From a virus (Duplodnaviria; Caudoviricetes): a stretch of 28,774 nucleotides of DNA. The stretch is from IMG/VR virus record IMGVR_UViG_3300025381_000082, positions 1 through 28,774 of that record, one strand, 5' to 3'. The position numbers and the translations under genes were made by a program. Shown piece by piece: positions 1 through 14,276 of this stretch; within the stretch, counting starts at the first letter, position 1; each line of letters opens with the position of its first letter. The notes beneath the pieces are model-generated. The model was not told the origin of the DNA. It saw only the letters and a list, made by a program, of their open reading frames with translations, and did not search any database.

Positions 1-558
1 CATCGATTCTCCTTTGCTATCGATATATCCTTGATAGCTACGAGAATAATTGGCTTTATTAATCCACGCATTACGATCTTTATCATTCTCTTCGAACCAT
101 TTCCTTGAACGACTTTGCGATTTCTTATAATCATTTATATTTTGATGATTTTCTTTATAGAATGGGCTGCTATTTCGACCATGAATTTTTTCTAATGCTG
201 CTGTTGCATTGATTCCATATGCTTTGCTGACAAATTCTATACTGTTTTTGTTTAGTTTCTTACTTTCACAATTGTTTTTTGCAAAACAAAGGAACTGCGC
301 AGTGTGTCTGCGTCTCACTCCAGTTGGTATGATACGACCGTTGTTCACATAATGATTTATACCGATAATATCATAATTAAAATCACCGCACCATGCACAT
401 CTTAATTCATGATGTTTTATATCCCATATCTTAAGATAACTGAATATTGATATATTTTTTCTTGTCAATGTTGCTCGTAACCGAATACTTCTATCATGTT
501 CAGTATTCTTTGATCGAAAACTGATATTCAATTTTTCACATGTAAATTCATATAACAT
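1..558 (-). CDS. Putative free-standing homing endonuclease, N-terminal part, runs off the window edge
   Basis: Not in the ORF track. Open frame from ATG at 558 to position 1 (MLYEFTCEKLNISF...RCAWCGD...NSIEFVSKAYG...SPFYKENH...KKSQSRS...SYQGYIDSKGE). It lies directly after a split-intein N-half and has a TAAATA promoter and an RBS-covering hairpin. The catalytic domain is not visible, so the family is inferred from context. Confidence 0.6.
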   Translation of the reverse strand, partial: MLYEFTCEKLNISFRSKNTEHDRSIRLRATLTRKNISIFSYLKIWDIKHHELRCAWCGDFNYDIIGINHYVNNGRIIPTGVRRRHTAQFLCFAKNNCESKKLNKNSIEFVSKAYGINATAALEKIHGRNSSPFYKENHQNINDYKKSQSRSRKWFEENDKDRNAWINKANYSRSYQGYIDSKGESM

Positions 559-610: not shown

Positions 611-1132
611 TTATGATAAATTATGCGCTATTAATAAATGAATTTCAGAATCTAGATATTTGGTAGGAATTTTTTCAATAATACCAGAAGAAATATTTAA
701 CACTGAAAATAAATGGTTTTCAGAAATTATACATGTTTGATTGATTATACCATTCGTAAATGATACAGATTTATTAAATTTTTCATCATCAAAGTCATCT
801 ACCCTTACAATTTCAAAAAACGAAGATTCCATGTTAATGATAGATGAGAGTAATTTATGTTGAGTTTTAACAATATCTTTGGCTTTCACCACTTCATACA
901 TATTATTTTCAACATTGAAAACAGGCATTTTGTGATCTGTGCTTATTTTTATAACTTTACCAGTTGATGTTGTTATCGACACACCATCAGTAATTTTTGC
1001 CTGCTTGTTACATATTGGTTTGATCGCGCCTGTGTGCGTTAAAACAAGATCTCCAAGATTTACGTCTTTTACTTTTTTATTGATAAATTCGCCATCTTCG
1101 AAAATTGCGATTTGTGTGTCTTCAGCTATGCA
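611..1132 (-). mobile_element. Split intein N-half (173 aa) inserted at the Toprim EGD|S site
   Basis: Block A CIAEDTQI directly after EGD, KDVNLGDLVLTH, block B KISTDHKMPV, KAKDI. No C-extein follows before the stop. Confidence 0.85.
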
Positions 1133-2428
1133 GTCTCCCTCACAGATTAAAAGTATACACTTGCTACGATCCTTGCCGTTGGCATCTAATAGCTTTGGAA
1201 CCTTATTTCGCATAAGCTTTCGATTTGCCTTAGCAATATCAGCGTCGTCCTTTTTTTGCGTTCGAGAAGCACATCTGGTGTAGATCGCATCTAACCAGAC
1301 TTTGTTATTACGTATTATGGTTTTAAATGTACTTTCATTTTCAAGACTAGTCTTAATGTAACGATCTACTTCGTCGTTAATCAATCGAGTTTTACTCTGG
1401 CTGTCAAAGTTTGGTGCATGCATTGTTGTTGTATTATAAATTAACAATCCTTCTGCAATATCGCTACGGTTGGGTGTTAATCCGCGGCGTTTGCTTTCTC
1501 TTTCCATCGCTTTCAGCATGCCGCCAAAAAATAATCGTTTAAAGGTATCAATATGCTGACCACCATTGAATGCTGGGATATCATTAACAGTACTGTGGAT
1601 GAACTCGCCCTCTGTTCCAAAATTTGGCACTAAGTAATATGTGCTGTTAAATTTCTCCTCTGCAATAGCGATAATAACGGGATCGCATTGTGCAAACATA
1701 GTTTTATCAACGCTTTTGCCAACGATAATTTTTTCATTATTAAAAGTAAAACGTATCTTTGGATGATTAGCTGCAACTTCGAATACTCTCGATTTAACAA
1801 ATGCTAATGGTATTTTAGCCTTAGGAAACACCGTAGCGCTAAGTGTGAACCTAACCTCAGTACCTGATTTCATTGAACTTGAAAATATACGTGGTTCACT
1901 TACATCAAGGTCTGGCATAAGATCAGTCCCTTCTCTAAATGTCTGCTGGAAACGCTTTCCGTCTCTGCGAATATCAATATGAAATTCTTTTGAACAACTG
2001 ACAACAACAGATGCTCCAATACCGTTAGTCCCTCGTACTTCTTCGCGATCGCCAAAATTTCTTCCAGCTCGTGCTTGTGTTAAGGCCATAGTAGCCTTGT
2101 GCATATTTTCATTTTCATCCCAATCAATTGGAATGCCGCGGCCATCGTCAGCTATACTAAATGACAAGGTCTTTGGATCGTATGTTACATCAATCTTACT
2201 GCCGTGGCCGTGACCAATAACTTCATCTAAACTATTGTCAAAAATCTCTCTGAATGCACAGTATGCTGCCGGTGTCCACGACACTTCTTGTGCAGCCAAT
2301 TGTTTGCCATCCCAATTTATTACGGTTTGTGTATGAAGATTTCTACTCCCAAGATACATTTCAGTTCTTAGACGATGATGTTGCACATCGGTAAGTTTAA
2401 TAATTTCATCGTTTTGTTTTTTAACCAT
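611..2428 (-). CDS. DNA topoisomerase II ATPase subunit (GyrB/T4 gp39-like), N-terminal fragment fused to a split-intein N-half
   Basis: GHKL motifs EIFDNSLDE, DDGRGIP and GTNGIGAS; FDSQSK; KLLDAN; Toprim start LICEGD, then intein sequence and a stop. Start placed at ATG 2428 (AGGA RBS) rather than 2515. Confidence 0.92.
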   Translation of the reverse strand: MVKKQNDEIIKLTDVQHHRLRTEMYLGSRNLHTQTVINWDGKQLAAQEVSWTPAAYCAFREIFDNSLDEVIGHGHGSKIDVTYDPKTLSFSIADDGRGIPIDWDENENMHKATMALTQARAGRNFGDREEVRGTNGIGASVVVSCSKEFHIDIRRDGKRFQQTFREGTDLMPDLDVSEPRIFSSSMKSGTEVRFTLSATVFPKAKIPLAFVKSRVFEVAANHPKIRFTFNNEKIIVGKSVDKTMFAQCDPVIIAIAEEKFNSTYYLVPNFGTEGEFIHSTVNDIPAFNGGQHIDTFKRLFFGGMLKAMERESKRRGLTPNRSDIAEGLLIYNTTTMHAPNFDSQSKTRLINDEVDRYIKTSLENESTFKTIIRNNKVWLDAIYTRCASRTQKKDDADIAKANRKLMRNKVPKLLDANGKDRSKCILLICEGDCIAEDTQIAIFEDGEFINKKVKDVNLGDLVLTHTGAIKPICNKQAKITDGVSITTSTGKVIKISTDHKMPVFNVENNMYEVVKAKDIVKTQHKLLSSIINMESSFFEIVRVDDFDDEKFNKSVSFTNGIINQTCIISENHLFSVLNISSGIIEKIPTKYLDSEIHLLIAHNLS

Positions 2429-2459
2429 TGGGATTCCTGAAAGTTCAGTGCAAGTAACA

Positions 2460-2487
2460 AGCATACGCAACTGTGTGTTGAAGTCAA
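2460..2487 (-). promoter_or_regulatory. Possible sigma70-type promoter for the topoisomerase gene
   Basis: TTGACT-16 nt-TATGCT, just downstream of a terminator and about 30 nt upstream of ATG 2428. Confidence 0.4.
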
Positions 2488-2493
2488 TCTCAT

Positions 2494-2523
2494 AAAAAGT
2501 GGAGGATGTTACCACCCTCCACT
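2494..2523 (-). terminator. Intrinsic terminator
   Basis: AGTGGAGG/CCTCCACT stem followed by a T run on the minus strand. Confidence 0.7.
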
Positions 2524-3854: not shown

Positions 3855-4910
3855 TTATTTATCAGTAAAATAATCTAACCATATTTTGCGTGTTTGGTTA
3901 GTGTATGATGTTAACATTAATTGATTGGTTTTTACATTAATGTTTGGGAATCTCCAGGCACGTTTTAACTTGTTAACTATGTCGATACTTTCAACTGGGT
4001 TAGCACAGAACCAGTTAACTGCCCATGGTATTTCTCGACTTCCAACTATTGGAACACCTTGGCTAATATGATCGGCTGCAACTATATTAAAGGTTTCCGA
4101 TATACTGACCTGCATACCGATATCCATAGTAGCACAAATTTCTAAAAACTCGTCTCGAGGTGCCCATGTATGATTGATAAGTTGATGACCGTTGTCAGCA
4201 AGATGTTGAAACATTCCTTTTAGATTGTTAAGTATTGGTTCGCCCTTCATTTCTATACGACCTGCATTTACATGGAATTTTAATTTCCTGCCTATTGTTT
4301 CTGCAAATTGTACGGCACATAATGCTTGTAAAATATGGTTTTTCAGCGGTCGTATAGCACCAAAACAGGAGATATTAACATATTCGTCATCTGGGTTAAA
4401 TGTTTTTGTTTTATATTCTTGAGGATAAAAATTAGGCATGTATATTATTCGATCGTCTGCTTGTGCATTCGACCAACTGCGTAGATGTTGTAGATAAAAT
4501 CTAGTTTCATCCATCATTCTAGGCGCATTTACACCTATTATGATATTTGGAAATCTAGCATAATCGCCTATCCAGTCCATAGCAATACCTTCGCTTGCAA
4601 TAAACGGCATTTCACTATGTAATCTTATTATCCATTTTACATCTGGATGCAATTTAGTTAATACAACAAACTTCTCTGGCACTACCCATAGCGCTTCTAT
4701 AAAAACATGTGTTGGTTTAAATGCACGTACTTCTCGGTCTATGCAGTTGTTATCAATGGCAACAAACATTCGACTTTCAACACCTGCGTCTTGCAGCATT
4801 TGATCAATAAATTTAACGCTGTTGTAAAGTCCTGTGCTCAAACCAACATGCGAGTGCAACGTTTGATTGTAATCAGGTCGTCTTTTAAGAATGAACAGCA
4901 CTCTAGCCAT
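3855..4910 (-). CDS. Putative GT-B fold glycosyltransferase
   Basis: FGAIRPLKN and SISETFNIVAAD…GVPIVGS resemble the GT4-type E-x-F-x-x-x-x-x-E/D…G-x-P-V motif; GAGG RBS. Confidence 0.7.
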   Translation of the reverse strand: MARVLFILKRRPDYNQTLHSHVGLSTGLYNSVKFIDQMLQDAGVESRMFVAIDNNCIDREVRAFKPTHVFIEALWVVPEKFVVLTKLHPDVKWIIRLHSEMPFIASEGIAMDWIGDYARFPNIIIGVNAPRMMDETRFYLQHLRSWSNAQADDRIIYMPNFYPQEYKTKTFNPDDEYVNISCFGAIRPLKNHILQALCAVQFAETIGRKLKFHVNAGRIEMKGEPILNNLKGMFQHLADNGHQLINHTWAPRDEFLEICATMDIGMQVSISETFNIVAADHISQGVPIVGSREIPWAVNWFCANPVESIDIVNKLKRAWRFPNINVKTNQLMLTSYTNQTRKIWLDYFTDK

Positions 4911-6851: not shown

Positions 6852-7115
6852 TTAAATATTATCAAAATACTTTACAAGCTCGATATACCCACCAATATAT
6901 TGGTTGTCTATCCAGATTTGCGGAACTGTTTTGGCAGTTGGAAGCCGTTCGATCAACTGGGATTTTGTTACATATGTCTGATGAGGTAACGGTGTACCTT
7001 CGTTAAAACCGGGACTTACTATAAATTCTTTATAAGATATGCCGTTATCTTTGAGTAATATCTTAGCTTTTGTACAATACTGACAATTGTTTTTTGTGTA
7101 TACTTCTGCTTGCAT
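6852..7115 (-). CDS. nrdC: Glutaredoxin
   Basis: YTKNNCQYC, TVPQIWID, YIGGY. Confidence 0.92.
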   Translation of the reverse strand: MQAEVYTKNNCQYCTKAKILLKDNGISYKEFIVSPGFNEGTPLPHQTYVTKSQLIERLPTAKTVPQIWIDNQYIGGYIELVKYFDNI

Positions 7116-7124
7116 GGTATATTC

Positions 7125-7817
7125 CTAGATTACGTCTAAATGTTTTTTATGTACCAGAGTACCGTTTGCCAACGAATCAATCCATACACTATCCGCCGGC
7201 GGTACAAGACCAGCCTGCTGGTAATGCCATGCCCATCGGGAATGATAGTTTACAGTTGGCTCAGAACAATGTACTCGTTTACAATTACTGTTTATAATAC
7301 TACTCCAGAATTGTCTATCACTCCACAACTTAAAACTAGGGTTGGTCACCCAGTGTGTCATTAAATGTATGGTAGATTTTTTTAGAAATAAACAATTTGT
7401 ATCACAAAATAAGTTGCCATCGCTTTCTATAACATCTGTATATAGAAAGTTACCCTGTGTGCTACAAATATTTCTTGTTGCAGATACAACATCATTTTGT
7501 CCTATAGTTGACACCATAGTTTCTAAATGATTTAACTGATAAGTGTTATCGGCATCTAAGAACGATACTGCATCGTAGCCTCTGCTAAATGCAGATATAG
7601 CTGCAATGGCTCGAGGGGTTGCTCCGGCATCGTCGTGTGCTTGTGGCAAAATTATATGTTCATTGTCTAACCATTTATTGATCATTGGATGAGGATTGCC
7701 ATCAGCCACCATAACATGTACAAAATTGGTATATGTTTGATTTAGTACAGATTTGTGACACCGTGTTAATATACCTGCGTCTTCATTGCGGTACGGAGTT
7801 ATAACTGCTATTTTCAT
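7125..7817 (-). CDS. Glycosyltransferase family 2
   Basis: IAVITPYRNE, SVLNQTY, VADG and FLDAD (DxD); start overlaps the nrdB stop. Confidence 0.85.
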   Translation of the reverse strand: MKIAVITPYRNEDAGILTRCHKSVLNQTYTNFVHVMVADGNPHPMINKWLDNEHIILPQAHDDAGATPRAIAAISAFSRGYDAVSFLDADNTYQLNHLETMVSTIGQNDVVSATRNICSTQGNFLYTDVIESDGNLFCDTNCLFLKKSTIHLMTHWVTNPSFKLWSDRQFWSSIINSNCKRVHCSEPTVNYHSRWAWHYQQAGLVPPADSVWIDSLANGTLVHKKHLDVI

Positions 7818-8914
7818 AAATTAGGGAGCTCATTGTAATTGAGTTCAGTACTAAGGATACCAATTACGTAATTGGTTGATTCAGTTTCCTGTAATGCAGA
7901 TTGTTTTTTGCTAGGATTACTGTGTTTTGTAAACCAAGGTATCGGAGTACTTCTAGGCACATTTGATTGATATCTTATTCCAATTTCCCGTAGAGCAGAA
8001 GACGCTGTATAATCTACGAAATCCTTAAGGATGGTTGCGTTAAGTCCAATCACTGGGCCTTTGCTGAATAAATAATCTGCCCACGCTTTTTCTTCTTGGA
8101 TAACATCAAGATATAATTGATAAACTTCTTGTTCACATTCTAATTTGGCAGCAGCGAATCGAGGATCTTCCTTAACCACCTGATTGATAATATAAGCCGT
8201 CCATTCCTTGTGCAGCAATTCATCCTGTAGAATCAGCCCAATTATATTACCGTTACCTATAAAGATTTTATTTTCTACCATTGCAAGGCTTGTTGCAAAA
8301 CTTACCATAAATCGAAACGCTTCTAATGCATAGCTAGCATTTAATGCTAACCAAATTGCTTTAATATGTTCTCTTTCATCAATTGCTGTTCCAAGTTCTT
8401 TTTGACAATTGATATTGTGCAACGCATCGTAATATCTACCAATACTAGCTGCCATATCAATTATTTCTTGAGTATCATGAATACTATTGAATACAGTCTT
8501 TGGCACATTGTAAATGTTTCGAATAATGTGACTGTAGCTTTTACTGTGCAGATTTGTTTCAAACATGCTCCAGATCATCACTAATGCTTCCAGTTCTGGT
8601 AATGACACCACAGGACTAAACACCTGTACAGGACCTCGGCCTTGCAATGAATCTAACGCAGTTTGCCGTAAAAGATTACTGGTAAAGATGTGCTTGACCG
8701 CATTACTAGCTTCTTTAAAATCGTTAGCATCTCTGCTTAAATTAATCTCTTCAGGGACCCAAAAAAATCCACGTTGTTCCTGCTCATATTTTGCAATTTT
8801 TGGGTATTTGAACTCTTCAAATCTCTGCACTGTAACTGGACCAGCTGGATCTAAAAACATTTTGCGATTTAGATAGTCGGTTTTAGTTGAAAGATTATAC
8901 TGTTCTTTACTCAT
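7814..8914 (-). CDS. nrdB: Ribonucleotide reductase class Ia beta subunit
   Basis: FFWVPEEI, QTALDSLQGR, ETNLHSKSY, EAFRFMVSF, DELLH, QETESTNY. Confidence 0.97.
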   Translation of the reverse strand: MSKEQYNLSTKTDYLNRKMFLDPAGPVTVQRFEEFKYPKIAKYEQEQRGFFWVPEEINLSRDANDFKEASNAVKHIFTSNLLRQTALDSLQGRGPVQVFSPVVSLPELEALVMIWSMFETNLHSKSYSHIIRNIYNVPKTVFNSIHDTQEIIDMAASIGRYYDALHNINCQKELGTAIDEREHIKAIWLALNASYALEAFRFMVSFATSLAMVENKIFIGNGNIIGLILQDELLHKEWTAYIINQVVKEDPRFAAAKLECEQEVYQLYLDVIQEEKAWADYLFSKGPVIGLNATILKDFVDYTASSALREIGIRYQSNVPRSTPIPWFTKHSNPSKKQSALQETESTNYVIGILSTELNYNELPNL

Positions 8915-8988: not shown

Positions 8989-9957
8989 TTATAACTTACA
9001 TGATTCGCAATCGTCATCAATATCATAGTCAAGAGCCGCTAGTGGTATTTCAGCAGGGTCGTCTACTTGCTTGCTACCCTGCTTGTCTATAAGCGAATAG
9101 TATAAACTTTTAAGACCCCAAATATGTGCGTTCATTAAATTCTTAGCAATTAACGTAGACGGTATCTTTCGATCTAAAAAGTGTTTAGGCGAATAAAAAG
9201 TGTTTGTACTGATACTTTGATCAACATATGCAGCAAGGACCGCCGATGTTTTCAAATAACCGTCGCAATCTTTTTGTTCCCACATAAGTTGGTATTTGTT
9301 TTTTAGCTTATGGTATTCAGGAACAACTTGTATAAATGATCCAGCTTTAGATTCTTTAACACTTATCAAGCTCATAGGCATTTCGATACCATTTGTACTG
9401 TTAATTACCACGCTTGAACTTTCAACTGGGGCGATAGCCATTAACGTTGCATTGCGAACGCCATGTTCTTTCATGTTAGAACGCAGTGTCTCCCAATCTA
9501 GTTCTGGAGAAAAATCAGCCAGCTCGTTAACACCTGCTGCACGAAGCTCCCAGGGAAATACGCCTTTTCCATAGCGAGTTTTTTCACTATGCAAACAGCT
9601 ACCTCTCTCTTTGGCCAATTCAACAGATGCTTCTGTTAGATAAAAAGCCTGATGCTCAATCCATGTCTTTACATCTTGCAATGCATCTTTTTCACCATAT
9701 TTTAAACCTCTTTTGGCATGCCAGTATGCAAGGTTAGTCACTCCGATGCCAATTGGACGAATCTCATCATTGCTCAACTTGCTTTGAATGCTGAGAAAAT
9801 CTTGATAATCAAGTATATTATTCAAACTTCTTAACAAAATTCTGCATGCACGTCTCATATCTTCTGGGTTTCTAAATGCGCCCCAATTGATAGATCCAAG
9901 TGTGCATAAGGCTATTTTTGGGACTTCGCGTGTGCATTCTTTTTTAATTATTTTCAT
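8989..9957 (-). CDS. nrdA: Ribonucleotide reductase alpha subunit, fragment 3 (C-terminal) with a 14-aa non-RNR head
   Basis: IALCTLGSIN (C462 equivalent), RPIGIG, APVESSS, DQSISTN, KSLYY and the C-terminal CESC. Confidence 0.95.
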   Translation of the reverse strand: MKIIKKECTREVPKIALCTLGSINWGAFRNPEDMRRACRILLRSLNNILDYQDFLSIQSKLSNDEIRPIGIGVTNLAYWHAKRGLKYGEKDALQDVKTWIEHQAFYLTEASVELAKERGSCLHSEKTRYGKGVFPWELRAAGVNELADFSPELDWETLRSNMKEHGVRNATLMAIAPVESSSVVINSTNGIEMPMSLISVKESKAGSFIQVVPEYHKLKNKYQLMWEQKDCDGYLKTSAVLAAYVDQSISTNTFYSPKHFLDRKIPSTLIAKNLMNAHIWGLKSLYYSLIDKQGSKQVDDPAEIPLAALDYDIDDDCESCKL

Positions 9958-9974
9958 TTTTTAATTCCAATTCA

Positions 9975-9991
9975 TATAAATACTATTTATA
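9975..9991. promoter_or_regulatory. Pair of opposed TATAAATA late-promoter motifs
   Basis: TATAAATA-C-TATTTATA palindrome in the 50-nt gap between the HNH gene (+) and nrdA fragment 3 (-). Confidence 0.75.
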
Positions 9992-10007
9992 CAGCATAAG
10001 GTACATA

Positions 10008-11099
10008 ATGTATAAAATCGACACAAATTCCATTTATTGGTCTAGATATACTAAATTTATTAATACCAGACAAACAAGAATCATACCAACAAATTCTATA
10101 GTAGAACTTCATCATATTGTTCCCAAATGTACAGGCGGGCACGATTCTATTTCTAATTTGATCGAACTTACTGTACGGGAACATTTTATTGCACATTGGA
10201 TGCTTTCTAAAGTTGGAATTGATGATGTGTGGTATAAACTTCGTTTTGCTTTTGGTTGTATGAGTGTTTGTAGCAAGTCTAATTCTTATAGAAATTTTCT
10301 CACATCTAGACAATTTGAAATTTCTAAAAAAATCAGAAAAGAAACTTTTAAGATGTGGAATGACCTCAATCCTTCTAAAGCCAAAGGAACATCTTGGTAT
10401 GTCGACGAAGATGGTGTTAGATATAGATGTCATCCAGATTCTCCTAAAATAAAAGAATTTAACTTAAAGATGCAAGCCCCTGGAAAAGGTAAAAAATGGT
10501 ATACAGATGGTAATAAATTTTTTATGTTATTGGAAACTGATCCGGTGATTTTATCATTAAATCTGCAACCTGGGTGCCCAATTAAAGGGGTGGAAAAACA
10601 ATATTCAGTTGAAACTTTGAAAAGTTTATCTAAAGATCGGGCAGAGAGATTTTGGTTCAACGACGGAAGACAATCATATAAACTAAAATTAGACGATGTC
10701 AAAATAAAAGAGTTGGGTCTTTCTGTTGGAAGACTTATATCACCAGACGGCTTAGAACGAATTAAAAGCGGCGCCGCGTGGAAAAGAACTCCCGAAGATA
10801 ATTTGAAAAATTCACTTAGGCAACAATCAAAAATGAGATTCAATGACGGCGTTAGAAATTTCACATTAGATCCAGATGATCCATTAATTTCGCAACTATC
10901 ATTAATCCCAGGTGTCATATTAACAGAGGAAGGTAGGAAAAAAATATCATTATGTGCTAAAAACAAAGATACGTCATACATTGTTGGAAAAAAATGGTTT
11001 AATGACGGCATAAAAAACTACAGATTGTTTGAAGATGAAGGATTAAAAATAGGGTTGGTCATGGGAAAGTTGTCTATCTCTAAACCAAAATGTCTTTAA
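10008..11099 (+). CDS. HNH homing endonuclease (MobE-like), antisense within nrdA
   Basis: ELHHIVPKCTGG…NLIELTVREHFIAH; C-terminal repeats KWYTDG, FWFNDG, MRFNDG and KWFNDG. Confidence 0.92.
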   Translation: MYKIDTNSIYWSRYTKFINTRQTRIIPTNSIVELHHIVPKCTGGHDSISNLIELTVREHFIAHWMLSKVGIDDVWYKLRFAFGCMSVCSKSNSYRNFLTSRQFEISKKIRKETFKMWNDLNPSKAKGTSWYVDEDGVRYRCHPDSPKIKEFNLKMQAPGKGKKWYTDGNKFFMLLETDPVILSLNLQPGCPIKGVEKQYSVETLKSLSKDRAERFWFNDGRQSYKLKLDDVKIKELGLSVGRLISPDGLERIKSGAAWKRTPEDNLKNSLRQQSKMRFNDGVRNFTLDPDDPLISQLSLIPGVILTEEGRKKISLCAKNKDTSYIVGKKWFNDGIKNYRLFEDEGLKIGLVMGKLSISKPKCL

Positions 11100-12114
11100 T
11101 ATCGTCGTCGTCAGTCAATTCTCTTACTTTCTTTTTTTCACCGTTCGATAATAAAACTTTATGTTGTCCGGGTAATGTTATTTCTTGACCATTATCTAAT
11201 GTTAGTTTGAATTCACCTTCATCGTCCAGACTATTGAATGGTTTTGTGGGAAGTACAATTTCTGCACATAAATTACTTTGATAGATGGTGTGAAATTCGG
11301 GATCAAACGGTCCTTGTTTTTGAACGTTATCGATATATAACAGATATATACGTCCAGTATCAGTACGCTCTTTTAATATGCCGCTTTTAAATACCTCTTC
11401 AGCACTCATAGTTTTTGTGCGTAGGTCTTTGCGTTTTTCATATTTTACATACAATTCTTCAAATAATGCGGTATTTTGATAAAATGCTTCGTATAGATCT
11501 GATACTTGATTAGGATCAAAAAATGTAATATTTTCTTGATTTTTAAATCGACGCCAGAATAACGAGTTTAACACTACTCCATAATCCATGTGGCGCACTC
11601 TAGTTTCGTCGGTTCCTTGATTATTCTTTAGAACGATTAGGTCGTCAAATTGGTAATGCCATATAGGATAATAGATAGTTGCACTTGAATTTCTGATACC
11701 GCCTTGGCTGTTATGTGTCAAGACCATCGGTCCTTCGCGGCTAGCAGATGCAAAGAATGTGTGAGTATCTTCTACTGTAATATCAATGTAACTGGGGTCG
11801 TTTTGCTGCTCAAAATCAGCAATTAGCAAACGAGTGAACCCCGTTTCAGTCAGCACGTGATCGTCATTTGTAAGTTCTTTTGGCTTTTTCTGTATGAAAG
11901 CCCCCGAGTCTCTCCATACCATAATAGGATGATTTACAGAGCAGTTTAATACGACACCGTTTTCAAACTCTAACCGAACTTGATCTTTGGTTTTTACATT
12001 AGTATTCCATTTGTCTGTTACTGTTTTAAAAACTACGTCGCCTTGTTTGGTTTTAGTTTTAATTTTCATCCCTGCCTTAAGGTCTTTAATTTGAATCTTT
12101 TTAGTTTTTACCAT
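11080..12114 (-). CDS. nrdA: Ribonucleotide reductase alpha subunit, fragment 2: split-intein C-half, RNR core and a 43-aa Hint-like tail
   Basis: …VLTHN|SQGGIRN, LKNNQG…RVRHMDYGV, ERTDTGRIY, QSNLCAEI (N437/C439/E441 equivalents); RNR similarity ends at DDEGE. Confidence 0.95.
   Translation of the reverse strand: MVKTKKIQIKDLKAGMKIKTKTKQGDVVFKTVTDKWNTNVKTKDQVRLEFENGVVLNCSVNHPIMVWRDSGAFIQKKPKELTNDDHVLTETGFTRLLIADFEQQNDPSYIDITVEDTHTFFASASREGPMVLTHNSQGGIRNSSATIYYPIWHYQFDDLIVLKNNQGTDETRVRHMDYGVVLNSLFWRRFKNQENITFFDPNQVSDLYEAFYQNTALFEELYVKYEKRKDLRTKTMSAEEVFKSGILKERTDTGRIYLLYIDNVQKQGPFDPEFHTIYQSNLCAEIVLPTKPFNSLDDEGEFKLTLDNGQEITLPGQHKVLLSNGEKKKVRELTDDDDIKDILV
11710..12114 (-). mobile_element. Split intein C-half (135 aa), atypical split
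   Basis: IKDLKAGMKI, block B NCSVNHPIMV, block F YIDITVEDTHTFF, block G LTHN followed by Ser+1. Confidence 0.93.
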
Positions 12115-13195
12115 TTTCGTGCTCTTCTCTTGTTAATGTCTCGATATCGTTAAATTTTTTCGATATTCCAAATTGGTCTACATGCAATATAGATTTTCCT
12201 CTAGATGCTCGATAGTAATCATTTAATAGATTTTTAGATTTAAAAAATCTGCCGTCTACTTTATAGAAAACTTTGGTTGTTAGATTAGCATAATTGCAAG
12301 AATTTACCTGATATTCATCTTTACTTATTTTAACAATTTTTCGTTCAACTAGCGAGTATACCACTACATTTCCGGTGTTATGGTGTTTATACAAGACTTT
12401 ATTATAGTTTTCTTTTTCTATTAGTTTCTTCTCGCCGGTGGCCTTGTCTATAACCGAAACTAGCCCAAATGTATTTCCAACATATCTGCCATTTGAGTTA
12501 TTAAACTCGTCCTGCGAAACTGTTACTCGGTTGTTAGTAACTGTATCATATGCTACTACTTTTCCTTTAGTAATACCGACGTATCTAAGATCAGAATTGA
12601 AAGTAGTTTTTGGAATTTTACAAGTTTTTCCAGTAGCTGTATCTAGTGCTAGAACATGATCTTTAAACTCAGTAGTATGTGTAGCAGGATCAAACTCGTT
12701 AACATATATCTTTTTAATTCCGTTTCCGGTCCTGATATTCATCATACCTTTTGAAACGTGTAGATGTTTTCCAGTAGCAAATGCTTCTACAGTTACACGA
12801 TAAGTATTGCCCTTATCATCCTTACACAATACAGATCCTGCTCCGCAGTTTGTGCCTCCGGATGTTAGCGAGTTTATGAAACTAGGATTCTGACCAACTT
12901 GATGTGTTTGATGAAATACTTTTTCTGCCGAAAACGCATCACTTCTAGATTTAAAGTATTCAATTCTGTATTCATATCTCTCCGGAAACTTTTTTAGGTT
13001 TTCTTTAAAATCTACTACAGTTGAGCTAGTAAAATATTTTACCAACAGATCGTGTTTATTACTGCCTTCGACTCCGCGAGAACCTGAATAAAACTTTCCA
13101 GTTTTGGTGTCTTTTAGTGTATAGCAGTAATAGGCCGAGTTTAATAGCATATTAGTTTGTGATCCGTTATATGATTCTTGTAGATAATCTAGCAT
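12101..13195 (-). CDS. Seg-like GIY-YIG homing endonuclease between the intein halves
   Basis: YYCYTLKD…KFYSGSR…YFTSS…AE…FIN; repeated (V/L)x(A)xD…TG…(K/T)(I/V)…F…YVG modules; GGAGGT RBS before ATG 13195. Confidence 0.88.
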   Translation of the reverse strand: MLDYLQESYNGSQTNMLLNSAYYCYTLKDTKTGKFYSGSRGVEGSNKHDLLVKYFTSSTVVDFKENLKKFPERYEYRIEYFKSRSDAFSAEKVFHQTHQVGQNPSFINSLTSGGTNCGAGSVLCKDDKGNTYRVTVEAFATGKHLHVSKGMMNIRTGNGIKKIYVNEFDPATHTTEFKDHVLALDTATGKTCKIPKTTFNSDLRYVGITKGKVVAYDTVTNNRVTVSQDEFNNSNGRYVGNTFGLVSVIDKATGEKKLIEKENYNKVLYKHHNTGNVVVYSLVERKIVKISKDEYQVNSCNYANLTTKVFYKVDGRFFKSKNLLNDYYRASRGKSILHVDQFGISKKFNDIETLTREEHENGKN

Positions 13196-13238
13196 TTCGC
13201 ATACCTCCATTATTATATATGCTTGTATGCGAAAAGCT
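13191..13238 (-). promoter_or_regulatory. Hairpin covering the start codon and RBS edge of the GIY-YIG gene
   Basis: AGC-T-TTTCGCATAC … GTATGCGAAA-T-GCT (13 of 14 pairs); TAAATA at 13241-13246 just upstream. Confidence 0.75.
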
Positions 13239-13239
13239 G

Positions 13240-13299
13240 TTATTTATCTGTAGAATTATCCTCATCTAGGACTTCTACCCAAGTATCGGGTGTGACACA
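13240..13299 (-). mobile_element. Split intein N-half (19 aa)
   Basis: CVTPDTWVEVLDEDNSTDK*, block A only. Confidence 0.9.
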
Positions 13300-14208
13300 G
13301 CACGAACGCAAGTCTCCAAACCACTTTTTAAGGAAAGGTATCATTCCAGTGTGCATAATTTCTCCGCCGCGTATTGGACTGCCTAGCGGTCGTAGTCTTC
13401 CTATCTCCAGACCTATTCCTGCACGTTTACTAGCATATTTGGCCATCATTTCCCCGCTGGCAAAAATACTATCCAAATCGTCATCGCTGCGTATTAGAAC
13501 ACATGAACTAAACTGTTTTGTAGGTGTTCCTAATCCCGCTAATACAGGTGTGGCTAATGTAAACAGCCCATCAGATGCCGAATGATAATATTCTTTAATG
13601 TATTTCATTCGCGCAGTATTAGGTTCTTCTGCATGAAAGACCGTGGCTGCTGCTATCATATATCGTATTTGGGGAGTTTCGAAAATTTCTTTTGTAGCAC
13701 GATTTCTAACCAGATATTTTTCGATTAACTGTTCTATAGCAGCGTAGCCGTATTGCTCATCCTTTTCGTGATCAAGCATATCGTTCATTTTGTTCCAGTC
13801 ATCTTCGCTATACCATTCTAGCAATTCAGCTGTATATAAACCTGAGGCAACATTTCGTTTCACAATAGAATACAGATGCGGTACATTATAGTCTCCGTAT
13901 ACATCTTTCCGTAACATACTCAACCGTTGTTTCCCAGCAACATATTGATAATTGGTATGACCTGTGTCGGTATTAATATCAACGTCAATGAGATCTACTA
14001 TTGCACGCAGCGTGATACCGTCAATTTCGGTAGTAGTTATGCCATCATAAAAATGTGGCTGTGCCTTAATTTCTATCATTGACTGACTAACATCTGCAAT
14101 ATTTTGACATACTTTGGCAATTTGAGCTTGCCATTTTTCTATGTTAAGTAGCTCTCTATGCCCGTCTCGTTTTGTGACGTGTATTACGCCCTGTTTCTGG
14201 GTGGCCAT
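13240..14208 (-). CDS. nrdA: Ribonucleotide reductase alpha subunit, fragment 1 (ATP cone) ending in a 19-aa intein N-half
   Basis: VTKRDG ATP cone, ETPQ, ATPVLAG, QFSSCVLI (C225 equivalent), RAGIG, LRSC|CVTPDT; AGAGGA RBS spacing favours ATG 14208. Confidence 0.96.
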   Translation of the reverse strand: MATQKQGVIHVTKRDGHRELLNIEKWQAQIAKVCQNIADVSQSMIEIKAQPHFYDGITTTEIDGITLRAIVDLIDVDINTDTGHTNYQYVAGKQRLSMLRKDVYGDYNVPHLYSIVKRNVASGLYTAELLEWYSEDDWNKMNDMLDHEKDEQYGYAAIEQLIEKYLVRNRATKEIFETPQIRYMIAAATVFHAEEPNTARMKYIKEYYHSASDGLFTLATPVLAGLGTPTKQFSSCVLIRSDDDLDSIFASGEMMAKYASKRAGIGLEIGRLRPLGSPIRGGEIMHTGMIPFLKKWFGDLRSCCVTPDTWVEVLDEDNSTDK

Positions 14209-14276
14209 GGACATTCCTCTTTGAATATTTGATTAGTTTACTAGGTAATTACTGTTGAGAGCTAGTTATTTAACTG

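Follow-up and report, generated by a model that had tools for sequence, protein, structure and literature searches.

The nrdA gene, which encodes the large subunit of class Ia ribonucleotide reductase (RNR), was analyzed in a 28,774-nucleotide stretch of DNA from an uncultured freshwater tailed phage (Duplodnaviria; Caudoviricetes; IMG/VR record IMGVR_UViG_3300025381_000082). This whole stretch, a 28.8-kb virus record with an estimated completeness of 7%, is referred to as the window. In the window, nrdA consists of three separate open reading frames (ORFs) on the minus strand, and two further genes lie in the gaps. The border between pieces 1 and 2 is termed junction 1, and that between pieces 2 and 3 junction 2. 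According to the arrangement that is favored here, and that appears fairly probable from the sequences, pieces 1 and 2 are joined by protein trans-splicing, while piece 3 would remain a separate chain, bound noncovalently with the aid of a splicing-dead half-intein built from a tail on piece 2 and a head on piece 3. The same pair of routes had been proposed in a previous sequence-only reading of this DNA, and both are still the best-supported readings of the two junctions. Split-intein fractured nrdA genes, atypically split inteins, and a nonspliced two-part NrdA have each already been published. The combination had been presented as not known to be described, and a literature search that left most subscription papers outside its reach likewise found no three-piece nrdA using both routes.

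Tiling of NrdA by three ORFs

The ORF calls and the consecutive matches to RNR models bear out the earlier claim that nrdA is divided into three ORFs around two intervening genes. Pieces 1, 2, and 3 match consecutive, non-overlapping parts of Pfam PF02867 (1-61, 70-222, and 222-522), and the spans of E. coli R1 matched by them are 6-293, 291-461, and 455-744, respectively. Aligned with the intact relative L059, the exteins cover residues 46-340, 341-504, and 508-816 at 82-87% identity. It had been claimed that the joined exteins restore a contiguous NrdA; with L059 as reference, the exteins meet exactly at junction 1, while the loop at junction 2 is one residue shorter.

Judged from the sequence, the hallmarks of class Ia NrdA are all present (C225, C439/E441, C462, Y730/Y731, CxxC, ATP cone, and NrdB), although distributed over three ORFs. 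The codons of the equivalent active-site positions are found at 13503 (C225-eq), 11268 (C439-eq), 9906 (C462-eq), 9102 (the YY pair), and 9009 (CxxC). The placing of the three active-site cysteines on three products is correct only for the unspliced precursors, as splicing would bring C225-eq and C439-eq together on a single chain. For piece 1 an alternative ATG exists upstream, at 14214; a GAGG motif lies immediately next to it, and at a workable distance from the ATG at 14208.

The two intervening genes had been read as an antisense HNH gene and a GIY-YIG gene. The first identity agrees with matches to Pfam (E 0.003) and to phrog_655 (E 1e-29). The second gene gave no Pfam, PHROG, or NCBIfam match, and its ESM Atlas features score 0.94 to SegE/GIY-YIG clusters; since language-model features alone point to this identity, the gene is termed GIY-YIG-like. 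The features of the locus are listed in Table 1.

Table 1. Features of the fractured nrdA locus and its partner genes (positions in the window; IntN and IntC, the intein's N-terminal and C-terminal parts)
Feature	Position	Strand	Content or evidence
nrdA piece 1	13240..14208	-	ATP cone, all-alpha domain, first barrel strands with C225-eq; IntN at end
IntN, 19 residues	13243..13299	-	Begins with Cys1, net charge -5; directly after LRSC; fused to IntC in contiguous alleles
GIY-YIG-like free-standing endonuclease gene, cassette 1	12101..13210	-	ESM Atlas features; stop overlaps piece 2 start
nrdA piece 2	11080..12114	-	IntC, middle extein with C439-eq and E441-eq, tail
IntC, 135 residues	11710..12114	-	Block B SxxH, block F Asp and His, terminal His-Asn, then Ser+1
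Piece 2 C-terminal tail, 43 residues, splicing-dead half-Hint	11083..11211	-	Pfam Intein_splicing 51-91; profile search; pN/pS
HNH endonuclease gene, antisense, cassette 2	10008..11099	+	3' end overlaps piece 2 3' end by 20 nt
Back-to-back TATAAATA motifs, T4-late-promoter-like	9975..9991	.	One towards HNH gene, the other towards piece 3
Piece 3 basic head, 14 residues	9916..9957	-	Like first strand of an intein C-fragment by eye; statistically weak
nrdA piece 3	8989..9957	-	14-residue head, C462-eq, YY pair, CxxC tail
nrdB, intact, partner small subunit	7814..8914	-	Pfam PF00268 E 3.6e-42
Glutaredoxin, likely electron donor (role inferred)	6852..7115	-	Pfam PF00462 E 5.1e-12

The possibility of an assembly artefact, raised together with the original claim, was checked in four other sequencing runs, two runs flagged as possible sources being left out. 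Contigs from runs X3, X4, and X6 bridge all four gene borders with 0-2 differences; these three runs perhaps belong to one campaign, and no listed contig covers the whole stretch. The same layout is present in L001 at 99-100% identity, and diverged relatives retain it too. The three-piece layout is thus confirmed not to be an assembly artefact. Contig joints that skip parts of the stretch (with sides of 20-45 letters) were also seen, and were interpreted as co-occurring relatives and not as splicing. In the complete 372-kb genome G001 of a relative, the sole nrdA is a two-piece tailed form, so a break of this kind is most likely compatible with function.

An atypically split intein at junction 1

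By sequence, the element at junction 1 is an atypically split intein of 19 + 135 residues with blocks B, F, and G on IntC. The IntC fragment matches Pfam Intein_splicing (E 1.7e-7), PT-HINT (E 6.6e-8), and TIGR01443 (above cut-off). A CV(T/R)P start is found in 13/13 distinct IntN sequences of split alleles, and the block B His, the block F Asp and His, the terminal His-Asn, and Ser+1 are invariant in 13/13 and 17/17 aligned alleles. These catalytic positions are invariant even though the alleles diverge to 48-52% identity. IntN carries an acidic charge (-5), and IntC begins with a basic stretch (+8).

In a query-biased set of 80 related loci, 46 have an empty junction-1 site, 26 a split intein, and 4 a contiguous one; in the other 4 the site was not seen. 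Contiguous intein alleles at this site are found in L012, L020, L026, L031, and L096. The empty alleles (46/80) read LRSC-SQGG or LKSC-SQGG, and removal of the intein from the window restores exactly this host sequence, in comparison with L059 as well as with the empty alleles. A structural model of the contiguous L096 allele has a predicted local distance difference test (pLDDT) score of 79 and matches whole Hint domains, with 50 PDB matches at E<=0.001; this whole-Hint test rests on L096, whose IntC is 79% identical to that of the window. Because the catalytic residues are conserved and relatives hold contiguous alleles, it is likely that pieces 1 and 2 are joined by trans-splicing.

The insertion site corresponds to E. 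coli R1 292/293, the start of specificity loop 2, which comprises E. coli residues 292-301 according to the accessible part of PMC4728125. The sequence-only reading had inferred trans-splicing at junction 1 and had named split-intein fractured genes as known. The split intein stands; its site and fragment length differ from those of the fractured NrdA genes of Dassa et al. (2009), as the window has a loop-2 site with a 19-residue N-fragment. In the accessible passages of Dassa et al. (PMC2677866), the inteins NrdA-1 to NrdA-7 are placed directly before the thiyl cysteine and have N-parts of 88-105 residues. The window resembles the fractured genes of those passages in that IntN and IntC sit on the host halves, with a free-standing gene of GIY-YIG type between them and with NrdA among the hosts; the same passages give no gene that pairs a split intein with an intein-less break.

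Atypically split inteins, as presented in the available parts of PMC11923092 and PMC10189870, have N-fragments of ~15-25 residues, and the 19-residue IntN with its 135-residue IntC belongs to this pattern. Compared with the known examples in these parts, the window differs in having NrdA as host, Cys1 combined with Ser+1, and relatives in which contiguous and split alleles coexist. An atypically split NrdA intein did not appear in the literature search, and neither did sequence evidence for intein-derived assembly tails, though the supplements of Dassa 2009 and Crona 2011 may bear on both. A natural split intein family with a 19-residue IntN, in which contiguous and split alleles stand side by side, would be useful for protein semisynthesis and for studies of how inteins become split.

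The break, tail, and head at junction 2

The break at junction 2 lies at the same place as in nrdA of Aeromonas phage Aeh1, between C439-eq and C462-eq. All four elements of a functional intein are missing: no Cys and no TxxH occur in 25/25 aligned tails, none of the 25 tails begins with C/S/T, and none of 23 heads contains HN or N-C/S/T. At the level of sequence it is thereby shown that junction 2 is without a functional intein, since Cys/Ser1, TxxH, His-Asn, and the +1 nucleophile are all absent.

The tail is under purifying selection at the protein level. Its ratio of nonsynonymous to synonymous polymorphism (pN/pS) is 0.23, and that of the neighboring RNR core is 0.25 (from 24 and 22 sequences, with synonymous sites near saturation). 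The head is conserved across 23 aligned sequences, with a pN/pS of 0.45. Across relatives, the net charge ranges from 0 to -5 for the tail and from +2 to +5 for the head, the window values being -2 and +3. Tail and head persist although the gap between them varies from -4 to 1473 nt and holds different ORFs. In two relatives, L096 and L097, the stop codon of the tail overlaps the ATG of the head, which leaves no room for an intron. With the Rfam models, neither the window region nor 8 relatives gave a match, and RNA splicing at junction 2 is unlikely. No natural form with tail and head fused was seen in 4 long matches among 19 candidates, and none of 37 distinct tails (118 locus entries, duplicates included) extends >15 residues further.

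The comparison with Aeh1 that had been drawn for junction 2 is correct in the site of the break and fails for the tails. In Aeh1 the order is nrdA-a / mobE / nrdA-b, and the split NrdA is active and needs its tails, as stated in the accessible part of PMC3045599. Both phages share the C439-eq/C462-eq break, an HNH gene in the gap, oppositely charged extra tails, and a lack of splicing residues. Unlike the Aeh1 tail (+6) and head (-9), those of the window are -2 and +3, so that the charge polarity is opposite, and the sequences are unrelated. An Aeh1 origin of the window tails was considered and rejected, as 204/1000 and 478/1000 shuffles score as high and the charge is reversed. Also unlike Aeh1, the window has its HNH gene in antisense and a second break upstream. 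For the tails of Aeh1, Crona et al. (2011) obtained no database match and raised descent from an intein as a speculation (PMC3045599, as far as accessible), whereas the 43-residue tail of the window can be traced to an intein and is read here as an intein remnant.

Origin of the tail and its recurrence

The tail matches Pfam Intein_splicing at model positions 51-91 (E 0.0076) and the end of TIGR01445 (E 0.0092). A profile of 25 tail sequences, searched against 1.84 billion proteins, gave 69 matches: 43 have an intein-start-like motif upstream (a loose pattern, 40-80 residues upstream), and the remainder comprises 7 NrdA tails, 7 short fragments, 7 others, and 5 that gave no single domain. Intein or Hint Pfam families are present in 42 of the 55 matches scanned, 12 very long sequences and 2 giving no domain being excluded from the 69. 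Several matches are naturally split N-fragments whose ends coincide with that of the tail. In a search of 2470 local ORFs, the sole match at E<10 outside the tail family is an intein-like stretch in a helicase of L031 (E 0.0011). The AlphaFold model of the tail (pLDDT 82) consists mostly of beta strands. A structural search by VIA-align with the model gave nothing at Z>=5 among 48,161 chains and nothing at Z>=2 among 134, the 43-residue fragment being too small to inform. From these matches it is considered highly probable that the ancestor of the tail was the second lobe of a split intein N-fragment, without the catalytic first half.

Split inteins have their natural break within the second symmetry unit, and their halves begin to associate electrostatically (bioRxiv 10.1101/546465 and PMC11923092, in their accessible parts). 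As in the second pseudo-C2 unit of gp41-1 and Npu DnaE, known from the same parts, the tail reaches the natural split site, and tail plus head amount to 57 residues versus ~51 in gp41-1. Unlike that unit, the tail is fused directly to the extein and is without blocks A, F, and G and without the block B Thr; as these are missing, it cannot splice.

A similar arrangement is observed outside RNR. In L137-L144 (8 of 80 loci listed, 7 of them examined), another ORF interrupts a family-B polymerase gene. A similar half-Hint tail stands at the end of the N-piece, and in the 4 loci read closely the C-piece begins with a basic MK-type head. On this basis a broader proposal is given slight preference: a portable splicing-dead half-Hint clasp, carried on the flanks of an endonuclease cassette, may let the cassette cut an essential gene at a site that offers no nucleophile, and may recur on phage polymerases.

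Separate observations were made on these polymerases. In all four loci so read (L137, L138, L139, and L142; ~4620-4760), the YxDTDS motif just after the head is interrupted: a Thr codon is followed by a stop and then by another Thr codon in a different frame, a pattern suggestive of a short, conserved hop of the ribosome. The tail profile also matched the proteins P0068 (a family-A polymerase fragment), P0028, and P0024, which end in half-Hint tails but have no corresponding intein start upstream; P0068, which had no match among viral contigs, is a candidate case.

Proposed assembly of the enzyme

Under the favored arrangement, three chains would be translated from the three ORFs that tile NrdA. 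The acidic 19-residue IntN would bind the basic start of the 135-residue IntC, the Hint domain would fold, and Cys1, the block B His, Asn, and Ser+1 would ligate LRSC to SQGG. Loop 2 would in this way be restored in a chain of ~59 kDa carrying both C225-eq and C439-eq. There is strong confidence in this part of the scheme, as predicted from the conserved splicing residues. The acidic tail and the basic head would then pair and close the broken beta-hairpin beside C462-eq, so that the 36.5-kDa piece 3 could complete the barrel and bring in C462-eq, the tyrosine pair, and the CxxC tail; this part is reasonably probable. Tail and head together would rebuild roughly the second symmetry unit of a split intein. 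The mature large subunit would be a two-chain protein, as in Aeh1, and is predicted to distribute its cysteines identically to the Aeh1 enzyme.

Several observations weigh against parts of this scheme. Block B of the junction-1 intein reads SxxH instead of TxxH. Records with the three-piece form are partial: the window is 7% complete, and the records that contain L003 and L107 are 26% and 16% complete. For the intein origin of the tail, the best Foldseek match, the Npu DnaE N-fragment, is weak at E 1.0; profile-profile (HH) alignment likewise relates the tail only weakly to the junction-1 IntC (probability 6.6%, E 0.0056); and the tail profile gave no intein among PDB sequences. For the head, the position-specific scoring matrix score lies above 302/319 null N-termini, yet 679/2000 of its own shuffles equal it. 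Finally, the Aeh1 tails are dispensable for binding between the halves and are needed for dimer and holoenzyme formation (PMC3045599, accessible part), and docking may for this reason be the wrong role for the window tail.

The last point leads to the most serious alternative, which is unlikely but deserves weight. It keeps splicing at junction 1 and supposes that the remaining chains bind through the barrel itself, with tail and head shaping the active site or promoting alpha2/alpha2beta2 assembly in the manner of Aeh1. When the Aeh1 tail was deleted, the a/b heterodimer remained intact, activity fell ~2000-fold, and dimer and holoenzyme were blocked (PMC3045599, same part). The shared break site agrees with such a role, and the head is only 14 residues long, with a putative intein origin. 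However, the window tails are unrelated to those of Aeh1 and reversed in charge, and the similar tail and basic MK-type head on the split family-B polymerase suggest a self-contained pair that is independent of the RNR dimer interface.

A second alternative, in which junction 1 is spliced inefficiently and the split intein does no more than hold or cleave the two pieces, leaving an enzyme of three noncovalent chains, is improbable. Many naturally split inteins are inefficient (PMC11923092, accessible part), and the Ser in place of the block B Thr could be read in the same direction. The invariance of the catalytic positions in such divergent alleles speaks against it, and a domain of ~150 residues retained at the start of loop 2 would presumably be hard to tolerate.

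Still less probable is a decaying pseudogene or an assembly chimera, with the phage using another RNR or that of its host. The record covers 7% of the genome, the window is a mosaic, and no single listed contig from another run spans the stretch. Against this, all borders are bridged in other runs, the catalytic residues are intact and purifying selection is evident, the layout is repeated in diverged lineages, and the complete relative G001 has no second nrdA. The weakest candidate, closure of junction 2 or 1 by a group I intron or ribosomal bypass with tail and head as by-products, is hardly credible: group I introns with endonucleases are frequent in phage RNR genes (PMC3653736, accessible part) and Rfam models can miss divergent introns, but no Rfam match was obtained at the loci searched, the tail codons evolve synonymously like those of a protein, the stop/start overlaps leave no intron room, the HNH gene is antisense, and every piece has its own conserved start.

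Stacking of mobile cassettes in related phages

The exact three-piece plan occurs in 8 contigs (L001, L003-L007, L107, and L109). In L003-L007, L107, and L109 the nrdA parts are 72-88% identical to those of the window, and a different gene occupies the second gap. Identity to single relatives changes sharply along the gene. L002 has no break at junction 2; the window shares 98-99% identity with it over IntC and 97% over the last 90 nt of piece 1, versus 71-89% over most extein bins, and the GIY-YIG-like gene product is 99% identical to the L002 copy. Compared with L009/L086, the identity is 88-95% over the last 180 nt of piece 2 versus 62-83% in most bins elsewhere; the HNH protein is 94% identical to that of L009/L086, and L086 is empty at junction 1. 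In a tree of 49 extein sequences, the state with split intein plus tail appears in three places (L001 beside L002, L003 beside L039 with its empty junction 1, and L107), although many deep nodes of this tree are weak and recombining segments are mixed in it. It is well supported by these sequence comparisons that the layout arose, recurrently, by the stacking of two separately mobile endonuclease cassettes in one gene.

Other combinations exist among the relatives. In seven of the 80 loci (L010, L011, L013, L019, L049, L050, and L053), the same atypically split intein is accompanied by a basic tail and an acidic head, as in Aeh1; when those of L010, L013, L019, and L049 were compared with Aeh1, 2/4 tails and 0/4 heads beat shuffles. 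In L016, L018, and L022-L024, nrdA is in three pieces with two different split inteins, at the loop-2 and thiyl-cysteine sites. In L049, L050, L053, L087, L088, L013, and L009 the gene is in at least four pieces, and in L049 and L087 one piece holds only ~8 extein residues between IntC and a second short intein N-part. A frame of 98 codons in L116 (3836-4129) comprises an IntC, ~20 extein residues with the thiyl cysteine, and a half-Hint tail; read from its sequence, it follows the two-mechanism plan again, here with another intein that is canonically split.

These findings imply that the RNR catalytic barrel tolerates stacked fragmentation, which would be rescued by two protein-level mechanisms in one gene, and which in relatives reaches four pieces. 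The locus also provides a small testable system for the question left by the Aeh1 work, the origin and action of assembly tails, with a traceable tail ancestor in the charged capture lobe of split inteins. If the proposed scheme is true, a live split intein and a domesticated dead one together rebuild one essential enzyme, the half-Hint would represent a general class of intein-derived docking modules, and the tail-origin proposal of 2011 would receive direct evidence. On the practical side, gene callers and RNR marker surveys will take such genes for pseudogenes.

Promoter-like motifs and neighboring genes

Tail, topoisomerase, and exonuclease genes of a tailed phage are present in the window. 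Near-identical DNA is found in freshwater metagenomes, and relatives lie on contigs of <=372 kb. The two TATAAATA motifs form a perfect inverted pair in the space from which the HNH gene and piece 3 diverge. The pair is retained in L029, L086, and L087, and TATAAATA upstream of piece 3 is restricted to loci with the antisense HNH cassette. Across the window the motif is not enriched (3 found vs 4.3 expected by chance), and a scan for sigma-70 promoters and terminators stayed at chance level.

The ORF of the topoisomerase II large subunit (611-2515, minus strand) ends in an intein N-fragment (Pfam Intein_splicing E 0.0021), and is followed by an unassigned ORF (1-558, minus strand) that runs off the contig. 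Topoisomerase II is probably a second fractured gene, with its other half beyond the window.

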